DNA from: an uncultured bacterium
Lineage (GTDB): Bacteria; Pseudomonadota; Alphaproteobacteria; Rs-D84
Length of the DNA: 64,000 nt
Reading direction: 5' to 3'
Assembly (NCBI GenBank): GCA_950096895.1
Contig: CATNBF010000001.1
Coordinates: forward strand, 20,853 to 84,852
Below are positions 165 to 22,423 of this stretch, in pieces (the first letter of the stretch is position 1; every line of letters starts with the position of its first letter). The translations under genes and the position numbers were made by a program. The notes under the pieces are model-generated. The model saw nothing but the letters and a program-made list of their open reading frames with translations. It made no database searches and was not told the DNA's origin.

Positions 165-193
165 TTGCGTAAAATCGCGCAAAGGGCTAGAAT
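165..193 (+). promoter_or_regulatory. sigma70-type promoter of Cys-rich locus 1 (TTGCGT - 17 nt - TAGAAT)
   Basis: The block cttgcgtaaaatcgcgcaaagggctagaattcct is repeated verbatim at 13620-13652 and in diverged form at 14836-14867. It lies outside the inverted repeats. Confidence 0.6.
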
Positions 194-216
194 TCCTAGG
201 GTATCGGGGAATTTAC

Positions 217-258
217 CTATGCCTAATTCAAAGGGTGGTTTAGATTAGGCATAGTTTT
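217..258 (+). terminator. leader hairpin (ctatgcctaat / attaggcatag, 16-nt loop) followed by TTTT in this cassette orientation
   Basis: 11-bp stem at 217-227 / 244-254, then tttt at 255-258. The same hairpin at locus 3 is followed by ttaggtc instead. Confidence 0.5.
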
Positions 259-321
259 CGTTCCAAAAATCCCCATTTTCTGCCCCTTTTTTATGACTTA
301 ACTATGCCTAATCTAAACCAC
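235..321. promoter_or_regulatory. invertible DNA switch, OFF-like orientation (IRL 235-256, cassette 257-299, IRR 300-321)
   Basis: Perfect 22-bp inverted repeat gtggtttagattaggcatagtt / aactatgcctaatctaaaccac. The 43-bp cassette is the reverse complement of the cassette at 14927-14976. Confidence 0.75.
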
Positions 322-2248: not shown

Positions 2249-3187
2249 CTAGCGGCCCAAACCATATTCACGAACAATACGCGCAATAATACGTGTCGGA
2301 ATACCGGTCTGACGTGATGCGGCGGCCTTGCTGCCCTTGGCCTGGGCCAATGCCAGTCGAACCATTTCAATTTCTGCATCGGTAATCTGGCGTCGTTGTT
2401 GGGGCTTTGGCCGTACCGGCAGAATTTGGTATTTTTTATTCCACAAATACATCTGACTGGGGCAGATGTCATATTTCTCTTCGATAACAAAGAAACTGGC
2501 CTGGGCCGATTGGGCATCTTGGGGCATCTTATTCATGATACCCAAGGCTTCATCCAGATATGCCTTTATTTCATCTTCTGTAAACTTGCGCCGTGACGGA
2601 ATCACAAAAACTTTTAGTTCGCGATTCCATCCGCGAATAACAGAATCATGGATATTATACTTGCGACTGGCATTCATGATCCCATGGTCAGATGCATAAT
2701 TCAAAATTTCACGCTTTTTCTCGATCGAACATATCTCGATCACCCCATGATAAATACCGAACTTTTCCGCCCAGCGATAGACACTCACTTCGTCAATAGC
2801 AAAACGTCGACACGCCGCACCTAAACCTTTATCATTCGCATAACGCAAGATTATTTTCTTTTGCTTGTCCGTAAAGTGTTTTAAGACTTTTGATTGAAAA
2901 ACATGCATTGTCTGGTTCCAGGAATAAATCAATGACGGTTTCACATCATACTTTTGACCGGCGACCGATACACCGTTATCGCGGGCATATTTCAAGATTT
3001 CCTGTTTTTGTGCATCTGTAAATTGACGATATGGTGCCCGCATAGGATAAATTTGATATGTATAATTCCACTGTGTTATCATATTACGATTCAAACGGAA
3101 CTTTCGTGCCGCCGCGCTAATCCCATTGTCACGTGCATATTCTAATACAGGTATGATGTATTCTGCGGTCAATTCAGTATATTTCAT
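2249..3187 (-). CDS. protein built from about six tandem helix-turn-helix modules
   Basis: Repeating ~50-aa units such as ILKYARDNGVSVAGQKYDVKPSLIYSWN, ILRYANDKGLGAACRRFAIDEVSVYRWA and ILNYASDHGIMNASRKYNIHDSVIRGWN. They resemble the HTH of IS3-type transposase OrfA. Confidence 0.55.
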   Translation of the reverse strand: MKYTELTAEYIIPVLEYARDNGISAAARKFRLNRNMITQWNYTYQIYPMRAPYRQFTDAQKQEILKYARDNGVSVAGQKYDVKPSLIYSWNQTMHVFQSKVLKHFTDKQKKIILRYANDKGLGAACRRFAIDEVSVYRWAEKFGIYHGVIEICSIEKKREILNYASDHGIMNASRKYNIHDSVIRGWNRELKVFVIPSRRKFTEDEIKAYLDEALGIMNKMPQDAQSAQASFFVIEEKYDICPSQMYLWNKKYQILPVRPKPQQRRQITDAEIEMVRLALAQAKGSKAAASRQTGIPTRIIARIVREYGLGR

Positions 3188-13620: not shown

Positions 13621-13649
13621 TTGCGTAAAATCGCGCAAAGGGCTAGAAT
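13621..13649 (+). promoter_or_regulatory. sigma70-type promoter of Cys-rich locus 2 (TTGCGT - 17 nt - TAGAAT)
   Basis: Identical to the block at 165-193. Confidence 0.55.
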
Positions 13650-13690
13650 TCCTGGTATTGCGGGGAATTTAACTATGCCTAATCCAAAAG

Positions 13691-13777
13691 GACGTTTTTC
13701 TGGCATAGTTTTTTGAAAAATAAAATCCCAGATTTCTGCACTTTTTTATCCCCCATGATACGCCTAATCTAAACGTC
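13691..13777. promoter_or_regulatory. decayed copy of the invertible switch, OFF-like orientation
   Basis: The left arm is gacgtttttctggcatagtt, with its core deleted. The right arm is atacgcctaatctaaacgtc. The cassette at 13711-13757 has the same orientation as locus 1, and the leader hairpin is followed by tttttt. Confidence 0.6.
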
Positions 13778-13789
13778 GGTTTTTTATTA

Positions 13790-14726
13790 TTGGCCGGCAT
13801 CATTATGATGACGCCCACCAAAATGGCAAACGCGGACACAGAATGTTATCAATGTCGCATTACCCAGAAATTTTATGGTGGCTGTCCAAAGCCCAGCGAA
13901 ATCAGCAATAATCCCTATTTCACGTATGAAAAATGCATCTGTACCCAAACAACACCACCGACCTGTATGATTATGGATGTTTTTAATGGATGCCCACTGA
14001 AAAATGCGGTTTATTGCCAATGCACCACTGGCCCATGCACCAGCGGCGGTGGTTCAACCGGGGGCGATGGGGGCGATACATGCGAAAAATTACCATGCAG
14101 CGCGTGCGATGCGAACGACGGCACCTGGCGCAGCAACGGCACCGGATATGAAATAAAAAAAGACCGGTGGCACATGCAGTGGCAACACATGTAATTCCAA
14201 TGGAACCTGTTCGGGGGAAACGGTTGAATATCGATGTGCCACCGGATATTGCGGTGAAACAACCGACGGCAAAACCGGATGTACGGCATTTTCTAGATCG
14301 GAACTAAGCACTGGATACTGTTTCTTTCAATTGGCATCTGGCATGCCATGCCCCCCGAATGCGGTGTCTTGTAAAGCCGGGGTCAGTGGATTCATGAAAG
14401 GATCCTGTCCGTCAGGCGTCACGGGTTGCACATGCGAATACACCAAACCGATCGCAAATACAAATACCGTTAACGGATATTCGGTATCATTACCATCATC
14501 CGGACAATGTAAAATCACCAACGGACCCATACAATTATGCGCCGCGGGATATTACGGCAATCCAGACAGCGGCACATGCCAAAAATGCCCGTCACCAGGC
14601 ACATCTGATGTCTTTGGCATCGGCACAGGCACCAATACAACAATTGACAAGTGTTATATTCCCGCCGGGACCCGCGGTTCAGACACCAGTGGAACATTTG
14701 AATACACCGCCCAGTGCGCCTATTGA
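13790..14726 (+). pseudogene. Cys-rich secreted protein, paralog 2, with lost ATG and a frameshift at an A7 tract
   Basis: The family start ATG CCT AAT is ACG CCT AAT here (13760-13768). ORF 13790-14194 and the open frame 14157-14726 overlap and differ by +1 at aaaaaaa (14155-14161). Confidence 0.6.
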
Positions 14727-14836: not shown

Positions 14837-14864
14837 TTGCAAAAAATCATTCCAGTGCTAGGAT
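14837..14864 (+). promoter_or_regulatory. sigma70-type promoter of Cys-rich locus 3 (TTGCAA - 16 nt - TAGGAT)
   Basis: Occupies the same position as the promoters of loci 1 and 2 within the conserved leader. Confidence 0.5.
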
Positions 14865-14907
14865 TCCTGTGGCGTTACCAGAAAATTTACTATGCCTAAT
14901 CCAAAGG

Positions 14908-14995
14908 GTGGTTTAGATTAGGCATAGTTAGGTCACAAAAAAAGGTGCAGAAAATGGGGATTTTTGGAAAGAGATTTATGCCTAATCTAAACCAC
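14908..14995. promoter_or_regulatory. invertible DNA switch, ON-like orientation (IRL 14908-14926, cassette 14927-14976, IRR 14977-14995)
   Basis: Perfect 19-bp inverted repeat. The cassette is the reverse complement of 257-299. It places AAGGTG (14942-14947), 6 nt and ATG (14954) in frame with the arm-encoded MPNLNH. Confidence 0.8.
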
Positions 14996-16216
14996 GGGTT
15001 TATTCTGGGGATGGCGGTTTTATTGCCATGCGCGGCATTTGGTGCAACATGTGATGGGCAAACCCAAAATAATTGCCCCAGTGGTTGTTATTGGGCGACA
15101 ATCGGGCTACCTAATGCATCGACTTCCTGTAGAGCATGTCCCCATGGTTATGATTACTCTACAAACGGCGCAAGCCAACAAGGGCAATGCTATAAAACTG
15201 CATCGTTTCCCCCATATCAAGCGATAAACTGCTATTATCGCTCAGACACCGATTGTCAAAATATCCCGAAATGCGGGGATACTCAGAACTGCACGCAGTG
15301 TGATTTTGTATGCACTAATGATGCCCATATAGAGCATGATGATGGTAACCAAAACATTCCCTGTAAATGCGCCTTAGATGAACGTGATTGCGCCGATCAA
15401 GATAAATATGGCGGGGCCGACGGAATCGCCAGCTGCACCGAAAAATGGAACGCGGACAACCAAGAATATTTTCTAAATAAATTAACTTGCAAGTCAAACT
15501 ATATCAAACATAATAATCAATGCATCATAAATGAAAAAGATTGTGATTCAATGCCAACACATGCCAAGACTTGTAAAATGATATGGGATTCGGAAAAAAA
15601 CGACTATGTAATGCACTTGACATGTGACAAAAACTATATTGCCATTGATAATAAGTGCAAAAATATTACGGAGACGGATTGTCTGACATATATCCTGGGA
15701 CAGCAGGAGCTAAAATCACTATACCAGGCTTGCACCACCAATCATGGCAATTTTCATATTACCGGAAATTTGACAACGGAATCGGGACAAGCATCCCTGC
15801 GTAATTGTCTTTGTAAAAAAACGGGGGCCACCCAAGTGTCCGGTGGTAAATGTTACCAGGCCTATGCATTAGTGGGATCGACCGGCAATTATACATGGGC
15901 CGATAACACACATTGGGCAGATTGTGTATGCAAGGATTACTTTTGCCCGAACGAAACCCATGGATGTGCAATCCCGGCCGAAAATGAATATTGGGACAAA
16001 GATTCAAGGGAATGCCAAACCTGTCCAATGGGAACCAAAACCAAATTCGGCAATGACACCGATGCCTATGACAGAAATCCAAAACGCACCGCCGGATCCG
16101 CCGCATGTTTCGTAGACCGCACGACCACATTCTGTGATGCATTTGGGTGTTTTAATCTGGAGGATATTTCCGATACCAATCGGTCATATTTGATAGAGAA
16201 TACAAACAACAAATAA
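14954..16216 (+). CDS. Cys-rich secreted protein, paralog 3 (intact)
   Basis: MGIFGKRF-MPNLNHGFILGMAVLLPCAAFG signal peptide, then about 400 aa rich in CxxC and C-x2-CP-x-G motifs. The alternative start is the arm ATG at 14978; the track ORF starts at GTG 14945. Confidence 0.8.
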   Translation: MGIFGKRFMPNLNHGFILGMAVLLPCAAFGATCDGQTQNNCPSGCYWATIGLPNASTSCRACPHGYDYSTNGASQQGQCYKTASFPPYQAINCYYRSDTDCQNIPKCGDTQNCTQCDFVCTNDAHIEHDDGNQNIPCKCALDERDCADQDKYGGADGIASCTEKWNADNQEYFLNKLTCKSNYIKHNNQCIINEKDCDSMPTHAKTCKMIWDSEKNDYVMHLTCDKNYIAIDNKCKNITETDCLTYILGQQELKSLYQACTTNHGNFHITGNLTTESGQASLRNCLCKKTGATQVSGGKCYQAYALVGSTGNYTWADNTHWADCVCKDYFCPNETHGCAIPAENEYWDKDSRECQTCPMGTKTKFGNDTDAYDRNPKRTAGSAACFVDRTTTFCDAFGCFNLEDISDTNRSYLIENTNNK

Positions 16217-16236: not shown

Positions 16237-16662
16237 ATGCATATCAACAAAAAAATCCCGTATAAATTGGGTAAAAAATTAACCTTGATGGCCGTTGGCG
16301 GCGCAACATTGTTTGGGGCATGTTCCAAAGAAAACAATGGCACCGATGAAATCTTGCCGAAACACGATATCGAATTGACATTTACCGAAGATAATTTCGA
16401 TCATATCGCATCAGATTCTGTGCGTGCGGCATTGGCACGACCGGATGTCGCCATGGTTTATTTATTGCCCAAAAATTATTTTAGCTTTAACCGCAATGAA
16501 ATTAATATTTTGCGCACGGCCGTTCTGGAACCATTAATCGAATTAGACCCCAGCCGCGTTACCGGTCGCGGGGATTTCTATTTCCGTCATGGTATGGTCA
16601 GCGCGAACGACAGCCTGTGGTACATTAAAAACAATTGGACCATTAACCAAAAGAAACGTTAA
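16237..16662 (+). CDS. lipoprotein, unknown function, probably co-transcribed with paralog 3
   Basis: Lipobox LFGA|C. There is a 20-nt gap after the upstream stop, with AAGGAG in front of the ATG. Confidence 0.6.
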   Translation: MHINKKIPYKLGKKLTLMAVGGATLFGACSKENNGTDEILPKHDIELTFTEDNFDHIASDSVRAALARPDVAMVYLLPKNYFSFNRNEINILRTAVLEPLIELDPSRVTGRGDFYFRHGMVSANDSLWYIKNNWTINQKKR

Positions 16663-16681: not shown

Positions 16682-16719
16682 TTGCCCGCGTGATAGATAT
16701 CATTGTGCGGGCAATTTTT
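16682..16719 (+). terminator. intrinsic terminator
   Basis: ttgcccgc-(17 nt)-gcgggcaattttt. Confidence 0.6.
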
Positions 16720-19846: not shown

Positions 19847-19877
19847 TATAAGTGTGAGCGTGGAGGAAAAAGAGCCT

Positions 19878-21782
19878 ATGAGAATGATTAACCGCATCTT
19901 GACAGTTTTTTTAGCCGTCGTAACGATGGCAACATCGGCGCATGCCGTACCGGCCGCGTGCAAGAGCGAATTGTATCGTCGTGCCCATCCGGAAAAATGC
20001 ACCGAAAAAAAATCAAATTCTTTTCTGTCGCGCAACGCGATCTGGATTGGTGGTGGGGCCGTGGCGGCCGGCGCAGTGGCCTTGGTTGCAATGGCGGCCG
20101 GTGGCGGATCCAGCTCTGGGGCCACGGCACATGTGCAATCGACCAATGATTCAAACTTTGCATTTGGGGCACCCAATGTTCCCCAGTATTCTTTGCCCAC
20201 ATTAAGCATTTATAACCGCGTGGGCTATACAGATCCGAAACTGTTGGCGGCGGCCCGTAAAACAACCCGCTATGCCCGTAATGCGGCCCAATACGAAGAT
20301 ATTCGCCTGGCCTATTCCTTGGCACGTGGATATACCGGCAAAAATTCAACCATCGCCATTTTGGACACGGGCGACTATGGCTATCATGGAACCGCAGTCA
20401 AAAACATTGCCGGCGGTGCCATTGCCCCGGATGTAAAAATCAACGAACACAAAATCGTTGATAACCACGGTGAATTCATTACATACGACAAAATTGCGAA
20501 CATCATCGCCAACGATACATCTGCCAACATTTTTAACGCCAGCTGGGGCACAGAATCCCAGGCCGGCCTGAACGCGGCAACAATTAAAAATCGGGCGCAA
20601 ATTGTTAACCTGACCAGTGAATCTTTTGTTAACGAAATCACATCGGCGGCCCAAAATCGCGATGCCATCTTTGTCTGGGCAGCGGGCAATGACCACAAAT
20701 CCCAAAGCACGGCCTTGGCCGCCATGCCGTTGGTGGTACCAGAACTGGATGGGCACTTTATTAATGTTGTCGCATGGGACAGCCGGACCAATTCGCTGGC
20801 CGATTACAGCAATGCATGCGGCGCAACCCAAATGTATTGCATCACGGCCCCGGGCACAGATATGAACGTTGGCATTGGCAGCGCATCCGGGACCAGCTTT
20901 GCTGCGCCGATTGTTTCAGCCGCGGTGGCGGTAATTCGTGAAGCATTCCCATACATGACCGCCGGCGAAATTACCAGTCTGTTGTTCACGACCGCCCGTG
21001 ATTTGGGCACCCCGGGTGTTGATGAAATTTATGGGTGGGGCATGCTGGATCTGGAACGGGCGCCACGACCGGTGGGGGCCACATTGGTCTCTATCGACGA
21101 TAACGTCATGGCACCAATGCAGACCGCCCGCGCCGCCGGTGTTATTGGCCGCCAGATCAAGTCCGCCAACCTGCGCTTTGCATTCTTTGACAGCTTTGGT
21201 CGTGCCTTTGACGCCAAATTAAACGACAGTATTAATTTCCGCCCAATGGGTCGTGCCATTGAACGCGTCCGCGGTAATGCCGACATGTCTGTATCATTGG
21301 GCAACATGGATTTTGGATTCACACGCAGCAACCTGTTGGCATCTGATGGATTCTTGCGCACAGGTGAACGTGACCTGATGGGCTTTGTCGGGATGCGCGG
21401 TGAAATGATGCTGGGGGATGTTCGCCTGTTCCAGCGCACACGCATGGGATTCAGTGCCCCAACCGCCGCCCGCGATTCCATGATCCGTGAATTTTCAAAT
21501 ATCATCAGTGCATCTGTCACCCTGGGGGCAACGTATGGGGACTGGACATTCACAGTGGGTGCCCCAGAAACAATCGTTTCAGGTGACATGACACTGCGTC
21601 TGGCGACCGGTCGTGCGGCCGATGGACAAATCCAGTATCGCAATCATCGCGTTTCTTTGGTTGAAACCCGCCCGGCAATGGAATACACCGCGAAATACAA
21701 GTTCATCACCGCCGGTTATATTGATAATCCGTCCGGAACCGATGAATTCTATGTCATGGCACGCGGCCAGGTCAGCTTTTAA
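19878..21782 (+). CDS. subtilisin-like (S8) serine protease with a C-terminal autotransporter-like beta domain
   Basis: Triad contexts ILDTGD, YHGTAV and GTSFAAPIVSAA. Signal peptide MRMINRILTVFLAVVTMATSAHA. The C-terminus ends ..ARGQVSF, an aromatic terminus typical of OMPs. Confidence 0.75.
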   Translation: MRMINRILTVFLAVVTMATSAHAVPAACKSELYRRAHPEKCTEKKSNSFLSRNAIWIGGGAVAAGAVALVAMAAGGGSSSGATAHVQSTNDSNFAFGAPNVPQYSLPTLSIYNRVGYTDPKLLAAARKTTRYARNAAQYEDIRLAYSLARGYTGKNSTIAILDTGDYGYHGTAVKNIAGGAIAPDVKINEHKIVDNHGEFITYDKIANIIANDTSANIFNASWGTESQAGLNAATIKNRAQIVNLTSESFVNEITSAAQNRDAIFVWAAGNDHKSQSTALAAMPLVVPELDGHFINVVAWDSRTNSLADYSNACGATQMYCITAPGTDMNVGIGSASGTSFAAPIVSAAVAVIREAFPYMTAGEITSLLFTTARDLGTPGVDEIYGWGMLDLERAPRPVGATLVSIDDNVMAPMQTARAAGVIGRQIKSANLRFAFFDSFGRAFDAKLNDSINFRPMGRAIERVRGNADMSVSLGNMDFGFTRSNLLASDGFLRTGERDLMGFVGMRGEMMLGDVRLFQRTRMGFSAPTAARDSMIREFSNIISASVTLGATYGDWTFTVGAPETIVSGDMTLRLATGRAADGQIQYRNHRVSLVETRPAMEYTAKYKFITAGYIDNPSGTDEFYVMARGQVSF

Positions 21783-22423
21783 CCATCGACATTTTCATAA
21801 CTGACATTGAATGTTTCTAAATCAGGGATTTCAATCCCCCGCCCCATCAAGAATCGATTCAACGTATCACGATGGACACGTAATCGCCGCGCCAAGATAT
21901 AACGACTGTTACCACTGTATAACTGTTGACAGATATATTTTTCACGCGTGGCCAGTTTGGCGGCATTACGACTGCCCAGGGGCCGACCCACATGACGTCC
22001 TTCGGATTTAACACGGGCCAAGGCCTCCTTGGTGCGTTGCGATATCAAATTCCGTTCAATTTCCGCCGACAATCCAAATGCAAATGCCAAAACCTTGCTG
22101 GTGATATCACTGCCCAGGCGATAATTATCCTTGATCGTCCAAACGCGTGCCCCAATATCCATACAGTAGTGCAAAATACTCATAATCTGTAATAAATTAC
22201 GCCCCAGACGGGATAGTTCTGATGCAATAATTAAATCGTCTTTGCCAATTTTTTTAATCAGTCGCCCCAACTTTCGCTTGTTCAAATCAACCGTCGACGA
22301 AATTGTTTCTTCGATCCATTTATCGACCACAATATTTTCTTTTTCACAGAACTTTTGTATTTCAAAGCGTTGATTCTCCGTCGTTTGGTGGTCGGTCGAA
22401 ACGCGGATATATCCGTAAATCAC
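21779..22423 (-). CDS. small serine recombinase (resolvase/invertase family)
   Basis: N-terminal MIYGYIRVSTDHQTTENQ (catalytic Ser motif), ELSRLGRN, and a C-terminal HTH (ILARRLRVHRDTLNRFL). 214 aa. Confidence 0.85.
   Translation of the reverse strand: MIYGYIRVSTDHQTTENQRFEIQKFCEKENIVVDKWIEETISSTVDLNKRKLGRLIKKIGKDDLIIASELSRLGRNLLQIMSILHYCMDIGARVWTIKDNYRLGSDITSKVLAFAFGLSAEIERNLISQRTKEALARVKSEGRHVGRPLGSRNAAKLATREKYICQQLYSGNSRYILARRLRVHRDTLNRFLMGRGIEIPDLETFNVSYENVDG

Follow-up and report, generated by a model that had tools for sequence, protein, structure and literature searches.

Compact invertible DNA switches and predicted exported cysteine-rich proteins in an uncultured alphaproteobacterium of the order Rs-D84

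Three cysteine-rich genes lie on the forward strand of a 64,000-nucleotide stretch of contig CATNBF010000001.1 (C1:20853-84852, hereafter the window), which comes from an uncultured alphaproteobacterium of the order Rs-D84. The assembly to which it belongs measures 1.0 Mb in 41 contigs and is 93% complete; positions are those of the window unless a contig number is given. The genes, here called locus 1 (304-1041), locus 2 (13759-14726), and locus 3 (14945-16216), each stand behind a very small DNA switch. Taken jointly, the findings are probably best explained by three exported, disulfide-rich modular proteins that are controlled by mini-invertons and belong to an individually switchable repertoire at the interface with a host or partner cell.

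Locus 3 is intact and encodes 423 amino acids from GTG 14945 or 420 from ATG 14954, with 37 cysteines (37/420, 8.8%, versus 1.5% genome-wide across all open frames of at least 200 amino acids). Locus 1 is a single frame carrying an in-frame TAA at 715-717 and a C-terminal module at 769-1038. Locus 2 consists of two frames that overlap at an A7 homopolymer run (14155-14161), with a C-terminal module at 14538-14723; an intact paralog is found at C4:53413-54558, and the frame overlap may be due to decay, to a sequencing error, or to a slipped-strand layer. The preliminary description of this DNA had reported three genes with an MPNLN(H/V)GF start, a signal-like hydrophobic stretch, and Cys-rich motifs, and all of these were found in the sequence: the codons ATG/ACG-CCT-AAT-CTA-AAC-(CAC/GTC)-GG, for (M/T)PNLN(H/V)G, are at 303-326, 13759-13782, and 14977-15000, the hydrophobic stretch comes next, and the C-x2-C-P motifs are present (CRACPHGYDYSTNG and CQTCPMGTKTKFG for locus 3, CQKCPSPGTSD for locus 2, and CRKCPDADFP for locus 1). 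Genome-wide, just 53 instances of C..CP are found across the 2308 open frames that reach 100 amino acids or more, mostly within Cys-rich frames. Further large Cys-rich open frames were found on other contigs, all on the minus strand (C5:22897-25905, 1003 amino acids with 82 Cys; C4:7222-10056, 945 with 66; C3:18922-21522, 867 with 33; and C25:2933-4285, 451 with 26); judging from its predicted proteins, the genome is heavily invested in disulfide-rich exported products.

Rs-D84 and Enterousia are widespread in human and livestock guts, and we know of no account of how they make contact with partner cells. By GroEL neighbors, the closest relatives of the present genome are metagenome-assembled genomes (MAGs) of Candidatus Enterousia and of "uncultured Alphaproteobacteria" from human, ruminant, and horse guts. 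The genus Enterousia has been placed in the order Rs-D84, with genomes of <1 Mb and a predicted symbiont or parasite lifestyle that depends on other cells (PMC12306168); surface or cysteine-rich proteins are not mentioned in the one Enterousia paper whose text was searched for these terms.

The switch and its two orientations

A genome scan found the same switch design at ~30 loci in the ~1-Mb genome. Its parts follow one another as a conserved promoter block, arm 1 (TATGCCTAATCCAAAGG), a 4-nt core (GTGG or GACG), arm 2, a spacer, arm 3, the complementary core, and GGTTTTT; the switch measures ~105 bp, of which ~50 bp (~70 bp from core to core) is invertible. At locus 3, a promoter-like block read from the sequence (14837-14864, plus strand; TTGCAA, 16 nt, TAGGAT) is fixed outside the invertible DNA, and a homologous block (cacTTGtaAAAAA..TATAAT) stands ahead of ~30 switch loci genome-wide. 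The left recombination site of locus 3 (14891-14926) is made up of arm 1 (14891-14907), the core GTGG (14908-14911), and arm 2 (TTTAGATTAGGCATA, 14912-14926). The spacer (14927-14976, plus strand), which is in the ON orientation, contains a Shine-Dalgarno (SD) sequence and the starts GTG 14945 and ATG 14954 and encodes (M)QKMGIFGKRF, which would form the n-region of the predicted signal peptide; the right arm with its core (14977-14995; TATGCCTAATCTAAA plus CCAC) encodes MPNLNH inside that signal peptide. The resulting inverted repeat (14908-14926 / 14977-14995) is 19 nt long and 100% complementary; that of locus 1 is at 230-256 / 300-326, so that the arms span 19-27 nt across the two loci.

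The switches of loci 1 and 2 are OFF. That of locus 1 (165-321, plus strand) has its promoter at 165-193, left site at 218-253 (core GTGG at 235-238), spacer at 254-302, and right arm with core at 303-321. That of locus 2 (13621-13777, plus strand) has its promoter at 13621-13649, arm 1 at 13674-13690, core GACG at 13691-13694, arm 2 (TTTTTCTGGCATA) at 13695-13707, spacer at 13708-13758, arm 3 (TACGCCTAATCTAAA) at 13759-13773, and core CGTC at 13774-13777, and it belongs to what we call the hybrid-arm class. An ON spacer reads GGGGGATAAAAAA-(A/G)TG-CAG-AAA-TCY-GGG-ATT-TT.., which comprises a ribosome-binding site and the start codon of MQKSGIF.., and continues through arm 3, which encodes MPNLNH or LCQKNV and then GF, into the gene. 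The predicted ON-state products begin MQKSGIFNLQKLCQKNVGF.. on contig C16 and MQKMGIFGKRFMPNLNHGF.. at locus 3, and the same cassette yields MQKSGIF.. at the ON loci C4:6439, C16, C17:3671, and C22. In another species (G017; L111:100-215, G017:C3) the same T-to-G change is present in all three arms, GCCGAATC / GATTCGGC (TATGCCGAATC / GATTCGGCA); it leaves the MPNLN reading unaltered, and the MQKSG cassette is likewise conserved. By this comparison, the switch arms co-vary in that species.

The spacers of loci 1 and 3 are reverse complements of each other (58 nt, 91%), and both ON and OFF states were seen among ~17 cassette loci; within the window, the intact locus 3 is in the ON state and the interrupted loci 1 and 2 are in the OFF state. 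When the DNA between the cores of 11 OFF loci was flipped in silico, the cassette start came into frame at 9/9 of those having an exported-protein open reading frame (ORF), where the chance of this is 1/3 per locus. Both window loci behave in this way, locus 1 giving MQKMGIFGTKTMPNLNHGF.. (MQKMGIFGTKTMPNLNHGFLLLAAV..) and locus 2 giving MQKSGILFFKKLCQKNVGFLLLAG.. (MQKSGILFFKKLCQKNVGFLLLAGIIMM..), each in frame. Direct evidence came from two contig ends, C20:16534-16674 and C21:14611-14751 (reverse complement). The final 141 nt of C20 overlap C21, with 127 nt identical, to ..GGGACGTTT (..CCAAAGGGACGTTT); past these 127 nt, C20 runs AGATTAGGCGTATCA, which in reverse complement is exactly TGATACGCCTAATCT, a sequence found at the other end of the C21 invertible segment. 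The assembly therefore retains both orientations of one locus, with the crossover in GACGTTT. The claim of a real inversion switch made in the preliminary description is supported by both observations, the opposite spacers of loci 1 and 3 and the two orientations of this paralogous locus. The arm set at C21:14550 (arm 2 TTTTTCTGGCATA, arm 3 TACGCCTAATCTAAA) is identical to that of locus 2, which makes locus 2 an OFF member of a conserved class seen in the flipped state; a frozen, decayed switch at locus 2 was ruled out on this ground.

Three further pairs of contig ends (C14/C8, C17/C40, and C36/C9) were considered as flips and rejected as paralog collisions, because their spacers differ at several bases. 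Contigs end in or near switches at the start of C3 and C36 and the end of C14, C17, and C40, indicating that the assembly has been fragmented by the switches. A reading of the repeats at the RNA level only, as alternative hairpins or a riboswitch-like leader, was rejected as the principal mechanism, given that both orientations exist in the spacer DNA itself. The architecture, the existence of both orientations, the crossover in the core, and the conservation of frame are thus established for this switch; from the placement of the SD and start within the spacer and from frame conservation, the ON orientation would be required for translation.

These results change how the shared N-terminus should be read. 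As the preliminary description had it, the N-terminus is encoded by the recombination arm: the MPNLN codons sit in the right arm of the inverted repeat. The n-region would come from the cassette and arm and the hydrophobic core and cleavage site from the gene, making the signal peptide a composite. At the OFF loci 1 and 2, MPNLN.. lacks a ribosome-binding site and does not mark the real N-terminus, contrary to what had been implied; the flip puts the cassette start in frame instead, and the ACG at 13760 in locus 2 is irrelevant. Nor does the common start define a protein family or provide evidence of paralogy, since it is written by the switch and is carried by unrelated genes, including those for leucine-rich repeat (LRR) proteins. 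Annotators should accordingly be warned that MPNLN.. starts at OFF loci are switch artifacts, as is the N-terminal similarity among these genes.

Downstream of the switches are Cys-rich proteins, a BspA-like LRR family (AEMVNVEYIH..), and several glycosyltransferases. The LRR genes have their own version of the switch (AEMVNVEYIHNAIKQKWDIT..; C8:42629-42727, C17:17316-17415, C21:6539-6637, C40:4374-4472, C9:26922-27021, and C36:580-679), in which the spacer has no start codon and forms a GC hairpin that is flanked by a T-run on just one of its sides (GCCCGGTTTTCTGGGCTTTTTT). This asymmetry suggests that the spacer would act as an invertible one-way terminator. The LRR genes keep their own SD and ATG downstream of arm 3, and both orientations are present among the paralogs.

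A cysteine module at the C-terminus

The proteins of the three loci do not match overall and have in common only a cysteine module of 45-70 residues. Locus 2 is a member of a family whose C-terminal module has the pattern Y-R-C-x2-G-Y-[YW]-G-x(5-9)-C-x2-C-P-x2-G-x-S-x2-G-x(4-6)-C-Y-x(3-8)-D-x2-G-x-[FY]-x(5)-C-x-Y-COOH. The module family numbers 18 genes in this genome and up to 19 per genome in 30/36 congeners, and in all ~30 members inspected the module forms the very end of the protein, following a predicted signal peptide and a region that varies. The hidden Markov model (HMM) built from the family alignment, A4, matches the locus 2 module at an E value of 1.9e-20, with C4_53413_54558 as the closest paralog. 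In an AlphaFold2 (AF2) model of locus 2 (14334-14723), the predicted local distance difference test score (pLDDT) of the module is mostly 87-97, with one ten-residue block at 69.

The preliminary description had likened the Cys spacing to furin-like, ephrin-receptor-like (GCC2/GCC3), or Giardia variant-specific surface protein (VSP) repeats. The second of these guesses was right in kind. An ortholog of locus 3 in genome G032 has a C-terminal module (G032:C34:18215-18340, inside L009) that scores 29.1 bits against PF07699, whose gathering threshold is 23.1 bits, and a congener protein in G033, with a locus 3-type tail after tandem C-x2-C-P-x-G-T-Y.. repeats, matches at 1.9e-14 and 53.6 bits. 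In the genome under study, a switched member of the module family (C1:3591-3710) reaches 27.3 bits with its neighbors, and the closest locus 2 paralog 20.3 bits. Aligned with hhalign, A4 and a profile of five bona fide PF07699 repeats (A5) scored 90% (E value of 1.7e-6). The negative control, a four-Cys repeat of locus 3 that is Cys-rich and unrelated to the module, scored 0.2% against A5 and 1.3% against A4, ruling out that repeat as ephrin-like. A six-frame search with PF07699 returned no match inside the window; it matched 54/61 Rs-D84 genomes, 48 of them above the curated cut-off and with up to 35 matches per genome, and 0/14 control genomes of reference prokaryotes. There is, then, an order-wide expansion in Rs-D84 of an otherwise mostly eukaryotic module. 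We conclude that the module is probably a diverged Ephrin_rec_like unit, the link being transitive through the ortholog, the paralogs, and the profiles. The other two guesses gave nothing: the Giardia VSP model PF03302 had no match at an E value of ≤1; no VSP C-terminal features were found, the window C-termini ending ..CAY, ..CPYRP, and ..ENTNNK with no hydrophobic helix; and furin-like and EGF models left a single trace, EGF_LMN_ATRN, at an E value of 0.38 over 9 residues. A PDB sequence search with the module profile found nothing significant, the cysteine-rich domain of TAS1R2 appearing at an E value of ~0.5.

Locus 3 has a more elaborate layout (all positions on the plus strand). A putative ephrin-receptor-like unit near its N-terminus (15050-15193, amino acids 33-80; C..C..GCYW....C..CP.GY..S..GA.....CY) scores 82% (E value of 1e-5) against A4 and 35% (E value of 4e-4) against A5. 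Next come tandem 37-residue four-Cys repeats (15434-15682; amino acids 161-197 and 207-243), with one copy extra relative to the homologs P0002 and P0003, which AF2 models as paired beta-hairpins at pLDDT 79-90. The C-terminal unit and tail (15989-16159) read YW....C..CP.G......CF......FCD..GCF.L, a variant of the family tail (C..CP.G....CF....F.D..G.F.L). The full AF2 model has a mean pLDDT of 66, with ~70-90 over amino acids 141-400.

In addition to the G032 ortholog, a search of 1.84 billion representative proteins brought up only two true homologs of locus 3, which are 33-35% identical to it and conserve its Cys columns; its distribution in the genus is patchy. GroEL, by comparison, is 84-92% identical across closely related gut MAGs, and on this contrast locus 3 appears to evolve rapidly. 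A word-index search of 5.8 billion proteins returned the query alone, and a search of the genome contigs with profile A1 returned nothing.

Candidate recombinase and neighboring genes

The genome encodes five tyrosine and two serine recombinases. One of the latter, a small serine recombinase of 214 amino acids with PF00239 (21779-22423, minus strand), is a candidate for the invertase. The closest ortholog, at 88%, comes from G029, and no genome besides this one and the present one has ~50 copies of the identical arm. Genomes with 2-10 arms each carry orthologs at 75-82%, though several genomes that have such orthologs contain no arms, and genomes without such an ortholog have almost none. This association is suggestive, being correlative and confounded by phylogeny. 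Adjoining the recombinase gene at 19854-21782 (plus strand) is a gene for a 642-residue protein with a subtilase-like active-site region (GTSFAAP) and the C-terminus ..ARGQVSF, which by eye looks like an autotransporter-type serine protease. Elsewhere in the window (2249-3187, minus strand), a 312-residue protein contains repeated HTH_28 or transposase-type helix-turn-helix units (PF13518, 2.8e-16, multiple stretches) and could be a DNA-bending or accessory factor.

A small lipoprotein-like gene (16237-16662, plus strand; lipobox-like LFGAC) begins 20 nt after the locus 3 stop with its own AAGGAG, and an intrinsic terminator (16682-16714, plus strand; a 13-pair stem and then TTTTTAT) ends the unit. 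No terminator-like site was found between the two genes. The short gap, the absence of an intervening terminator, and the strong terminator after the second gene make it probable that the lipoprotein gene is co-transcribed with locus 3, as had been proposed. The proposal does not extend to G032, where the lipoprotein ortholog is immediately upstream of the locus 3 ortholog with a terminator between them; from the gene order, the adjacency recurs there and the co-transcription does not. The lipobox reads ..GGATLFGAC|SKEN here, ..AGFMSSC in the ortholog, and ..LVMGC in the one paralog that the gene has in this genome, and the protein has no Pfam or NCBIfam match.

Directly downstream of locus 1, on the opposite strand (1081-2172), is a gene of the choloylglycine (bile-salt) hydrolase family (PF02275, 1.5e-64), which fits a gut habitat. 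A module gene is downstream of groEL in just 5/67 relatives (and upstream in a sixth), so there is no conserved synteny.

Proposed mechanism, alternatives, and comparison with known systems

The preliminary description's characterization of the products as signal-peptide-bearing and Cys-rich is supported by the composition of the intact protein and by its leader, which by eye reads MQKMGIFGKRFMPNLNHGFILGMAVLLPCAAFG|A, with predicted cleavage near AFG|A at residue 30/31 from ATG 14954. Signal-peptide-like N-termini are present in the window proteins, homologs, and paralogs, and the leaders of the homologs end just before the first conserved Cys. We propose that the three genes encode Sec-exported, disulfide-rich modular proteins of a superfamily specific to the Rs-D84 / Candidatus Enterousia lineage, whose recurring unit, a diverged PF07699 (TNFR/Eph-type cysteine-rich) module, would in most members close the protein after an N-terminal part that varies. 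Each gene would be governed by a mini-inverton in which a fixed promoter is followed by a left site (arm, 4-nt core, arm), a spacer of ~50 bp, and a right arm with core. In the ON orientation, the spacer would supply the ribosome-binding site, the start codon, and a positively charged n-region, MQK(S/M)GIF..; the right arm would add MPNLNH or LCQKNV and then GF, and the gene the hydrophobic core and cleavage site. In the OFF orientation, the gene would be left without a ribosome-binding site or start. A single trans-acting recombinase, for which the serine recombinase at 21779-22423 is the candidate, may flip all the sites. After export, the proteins would form disulfides as they fold in the periplasm, for which the genome has a DsbA-family gene, and might be displayed or released as a switchable repertoire that varies the cell's interface with a host or partner cell, serving as a variable contact or evasion repertoire.

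A number of results weigh against this explanation. A Pfam scan (E value of ≤1) gave no PF07699 match for the protein of locus 1, 2, or 3, and in Pfam and NCBIfam scans the window proteins stayed below every threshold, with seven paralogs likewise lacking a direct match; by Pfam's criterion, the window copies are not members of PF07699. Foldseek with the locus 2 module model had a best E value of 0.49, which is non-significant (the top ranks, equally non-significant, were the cysteine-rich domains of OX40, CD40, and DR5, then EphB2/EphA2/EphA4, Meckelin, and Elapor1), and with the whole locus 3 model it placed Pvs25 at an E value of 0.012, a probability of 0.35, and a template modeling (TM) score of 0.11-0.20, also non-significant. 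The C-terminus of locus 1 fits the module pattern by eye and is weak by hhalign against A4 (5.7%, E value of 0.0067). Searched against one another with phmmer, the three window proteins gave no match beyond the switch-encoded start, which rules out overall paralogy; of the earlier term "paralogs," what stands is the common cysteine module. In the genome-wide count that had been suggested as a check, the switch is present at 7/18 module-family genes and missing at 11/18. DsbB was looked for in the genome and not found. No outer-membrane translocation route, anchor, or dedicated secretion system was identified, and for this reason we infer, rather than observe, a surface location. Both OFF loci of the window carry interruptions and may be nonfunctional. 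Finally, the two orientations of the C20/C21 locus may come from two co-assembled strains, an alternative to switching within a clone.

Some of these negatives would also fit a resemblance to ephrin receptors that is convergent or compositional, the window proteins being unrelated orphans with only their switch-encoded start in common. The phmmer and Pfam results, the non-significant PDB sequence search and both fold searches, and the shortness of motifs dominated by Cys, Gly, and Pro all point that way. We nevertheless think it very unlikely, as the locus 3 ortholog and locus 2 paralogs lie at or over the PF07699 cut-off, the profile-profile score of 90% contrasts with 0.2% for another Cys-rich repeat, the module HMM finds locus 2 with high significance, and the module is always C-terminal in the members examined. 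The missing outer-membrane export signal, anchor, and secretion system bear on a different alternative, namely that these are periplasmic or envelope-structural Cys-rich proteins, comparable to the disulfide-cross-linked OmcA/OmcB shell of chlamydiae, whose switching remodels the envelope, for instance against phage or stress. The DsbA-family gene and the many other Cys-rich exported proteins of the genome would suit it. Such parts are usually conserved, yet locus 3 is nearly without homologs and patchy in the genus; moreover, a variable N-terminal and conserved C-terminal layout with ON/OFF control gene by gene is typical of exposed repertoires, and BspA-like LRR proteins and glycosyltransferases are under the same switch. 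We regard an envelope-structural role as unlikely.

The alternative that we take most seriously, while still leaning against it, is that only locus 3 matters and that loci 1 and 2 are decaying pseudogenes left by past duplications, with no functioning multigene repertoire in the window. The TAA at 715-717, the frame change at the A7 run, and the OFF state of both loci speak for it. On the other side, both loci retain intact arms, cores, and an in-frame cassette, locus 2 has the arm set for which flipping was seen at C21/C20, other parts of the genome contain intact switched paralogs, and strain polymorphism, slippage at a homopolymer, or assembly errors could account for the interruptions. A bolder version of the repertoire explanation would see here a bacterial counterpart of protist antigenic variation, in which one global invertase independently flips ~30 mini-invertons and so selects among Eph/TNFR-like, BspA-like LRR, and glycosyltransferase genes, the switch writing the first half of each signal peptide and the module having possibly been acquired from, or mimicking ligands of, a eukaryotic host or partner (a gut protist or an animal). 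We consider this version doubtful in its full form.

If the repertoire explanation holds, Rs-D84 would possess a large, fast-evolving set of exported Cys-rich proteins with an animal- or protist-type module, members of which are wired to a compact two-state DNA switch. The set would offer concrete candidates for the molecules by which Rs-D84 / Enterousia contact a host or partner and, in addition, a tractable case of an inverton supplying a portion of a signal peptide; acquisition or mimicry of the module, if true, would point to the attachment partners of these uncultured 1-Mb symbionts.

PF07699, formerly GCC2_GCC3, is the cysteine-rich unit of Eph receptors, with a fold related to that of TNFR cysteine-rich domains, and is found in Elapor1, Meckelin, and many protist surface proteins. 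The Enterousia module resembles it in its spacing, C-x2-G-Y-x(5-9)-C-x2-C-P-x-G-x-S-x2-G-x(4-6)-C, and in having orthologs and paralogs over the Pfam cut-off. Unlike the usual PF07699 arrays, the Enterousia units are single or paired and are housed in a bacterium with a 1-Mb genome, the window copies are too diverged for Pfam, and most units are fused to a conserved tail (..CY.P.G...D..G.F.Y...C.Y-COOH, or ..F.D..G.F.LP in the locus 3 type). The Giardia VSPs (PF03302) are likewise CXXC-rich, variable, individually expressed, and made by a gut organism, but the present proteins have no PF03302 match and no C-terminal transmembrane helix or CRGKA tail, and their control would be by DNA inversion instead of post-transcriptional silencing.

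Inversion-driven repertoires are known from the Mpi regulon of Bacteroides fragilis, mpl of Mycoplasma penetrans (one invertible promoter per gene), and vsa of Mycoplasma pulmonis (site inside the 5' coding region). Shared with these are the many surface-related genes with the same short inverted repeats, the presumably global control by one recombinase, and the setting in a reduced-genome, host-dependent bacterium; as in vsa, the recombination site falls within coding sequence, here that of the predicted signal peptide. In contrast to all three, the Enterousia segment is ~50 bp, has no promoter, and carries a ribosome-binding site, start codon, and n-region, the LRR-gene version carries a putative one-way terminator, and genes flip in place with no single expression site. 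For cwpV of Clostridioides difficile, Emerson et al. reportedly described in 2009 an invertible element of ~195 bp between promoter and ORF that acts by a terminator only. A fixed promoter, an invertible element downstream of it, and control after transcription initiation are common to both systems, whereas the Enterousia element contributes to the protein sequence itself, through a split signal peptide, and its inversion swaps two kinds of arm. "Partial intergenic invertons" that overlap a gene start are a recognized class (PMC10028968), and they, like phase-variable surface repertoires and PF07699 itself, are already known. What is new is their combination in an undescribed lineage, a very small invertible segment by which half of a signal peptide is written and two kinds of arm are exchanged, and the order-wide expansion of the module.

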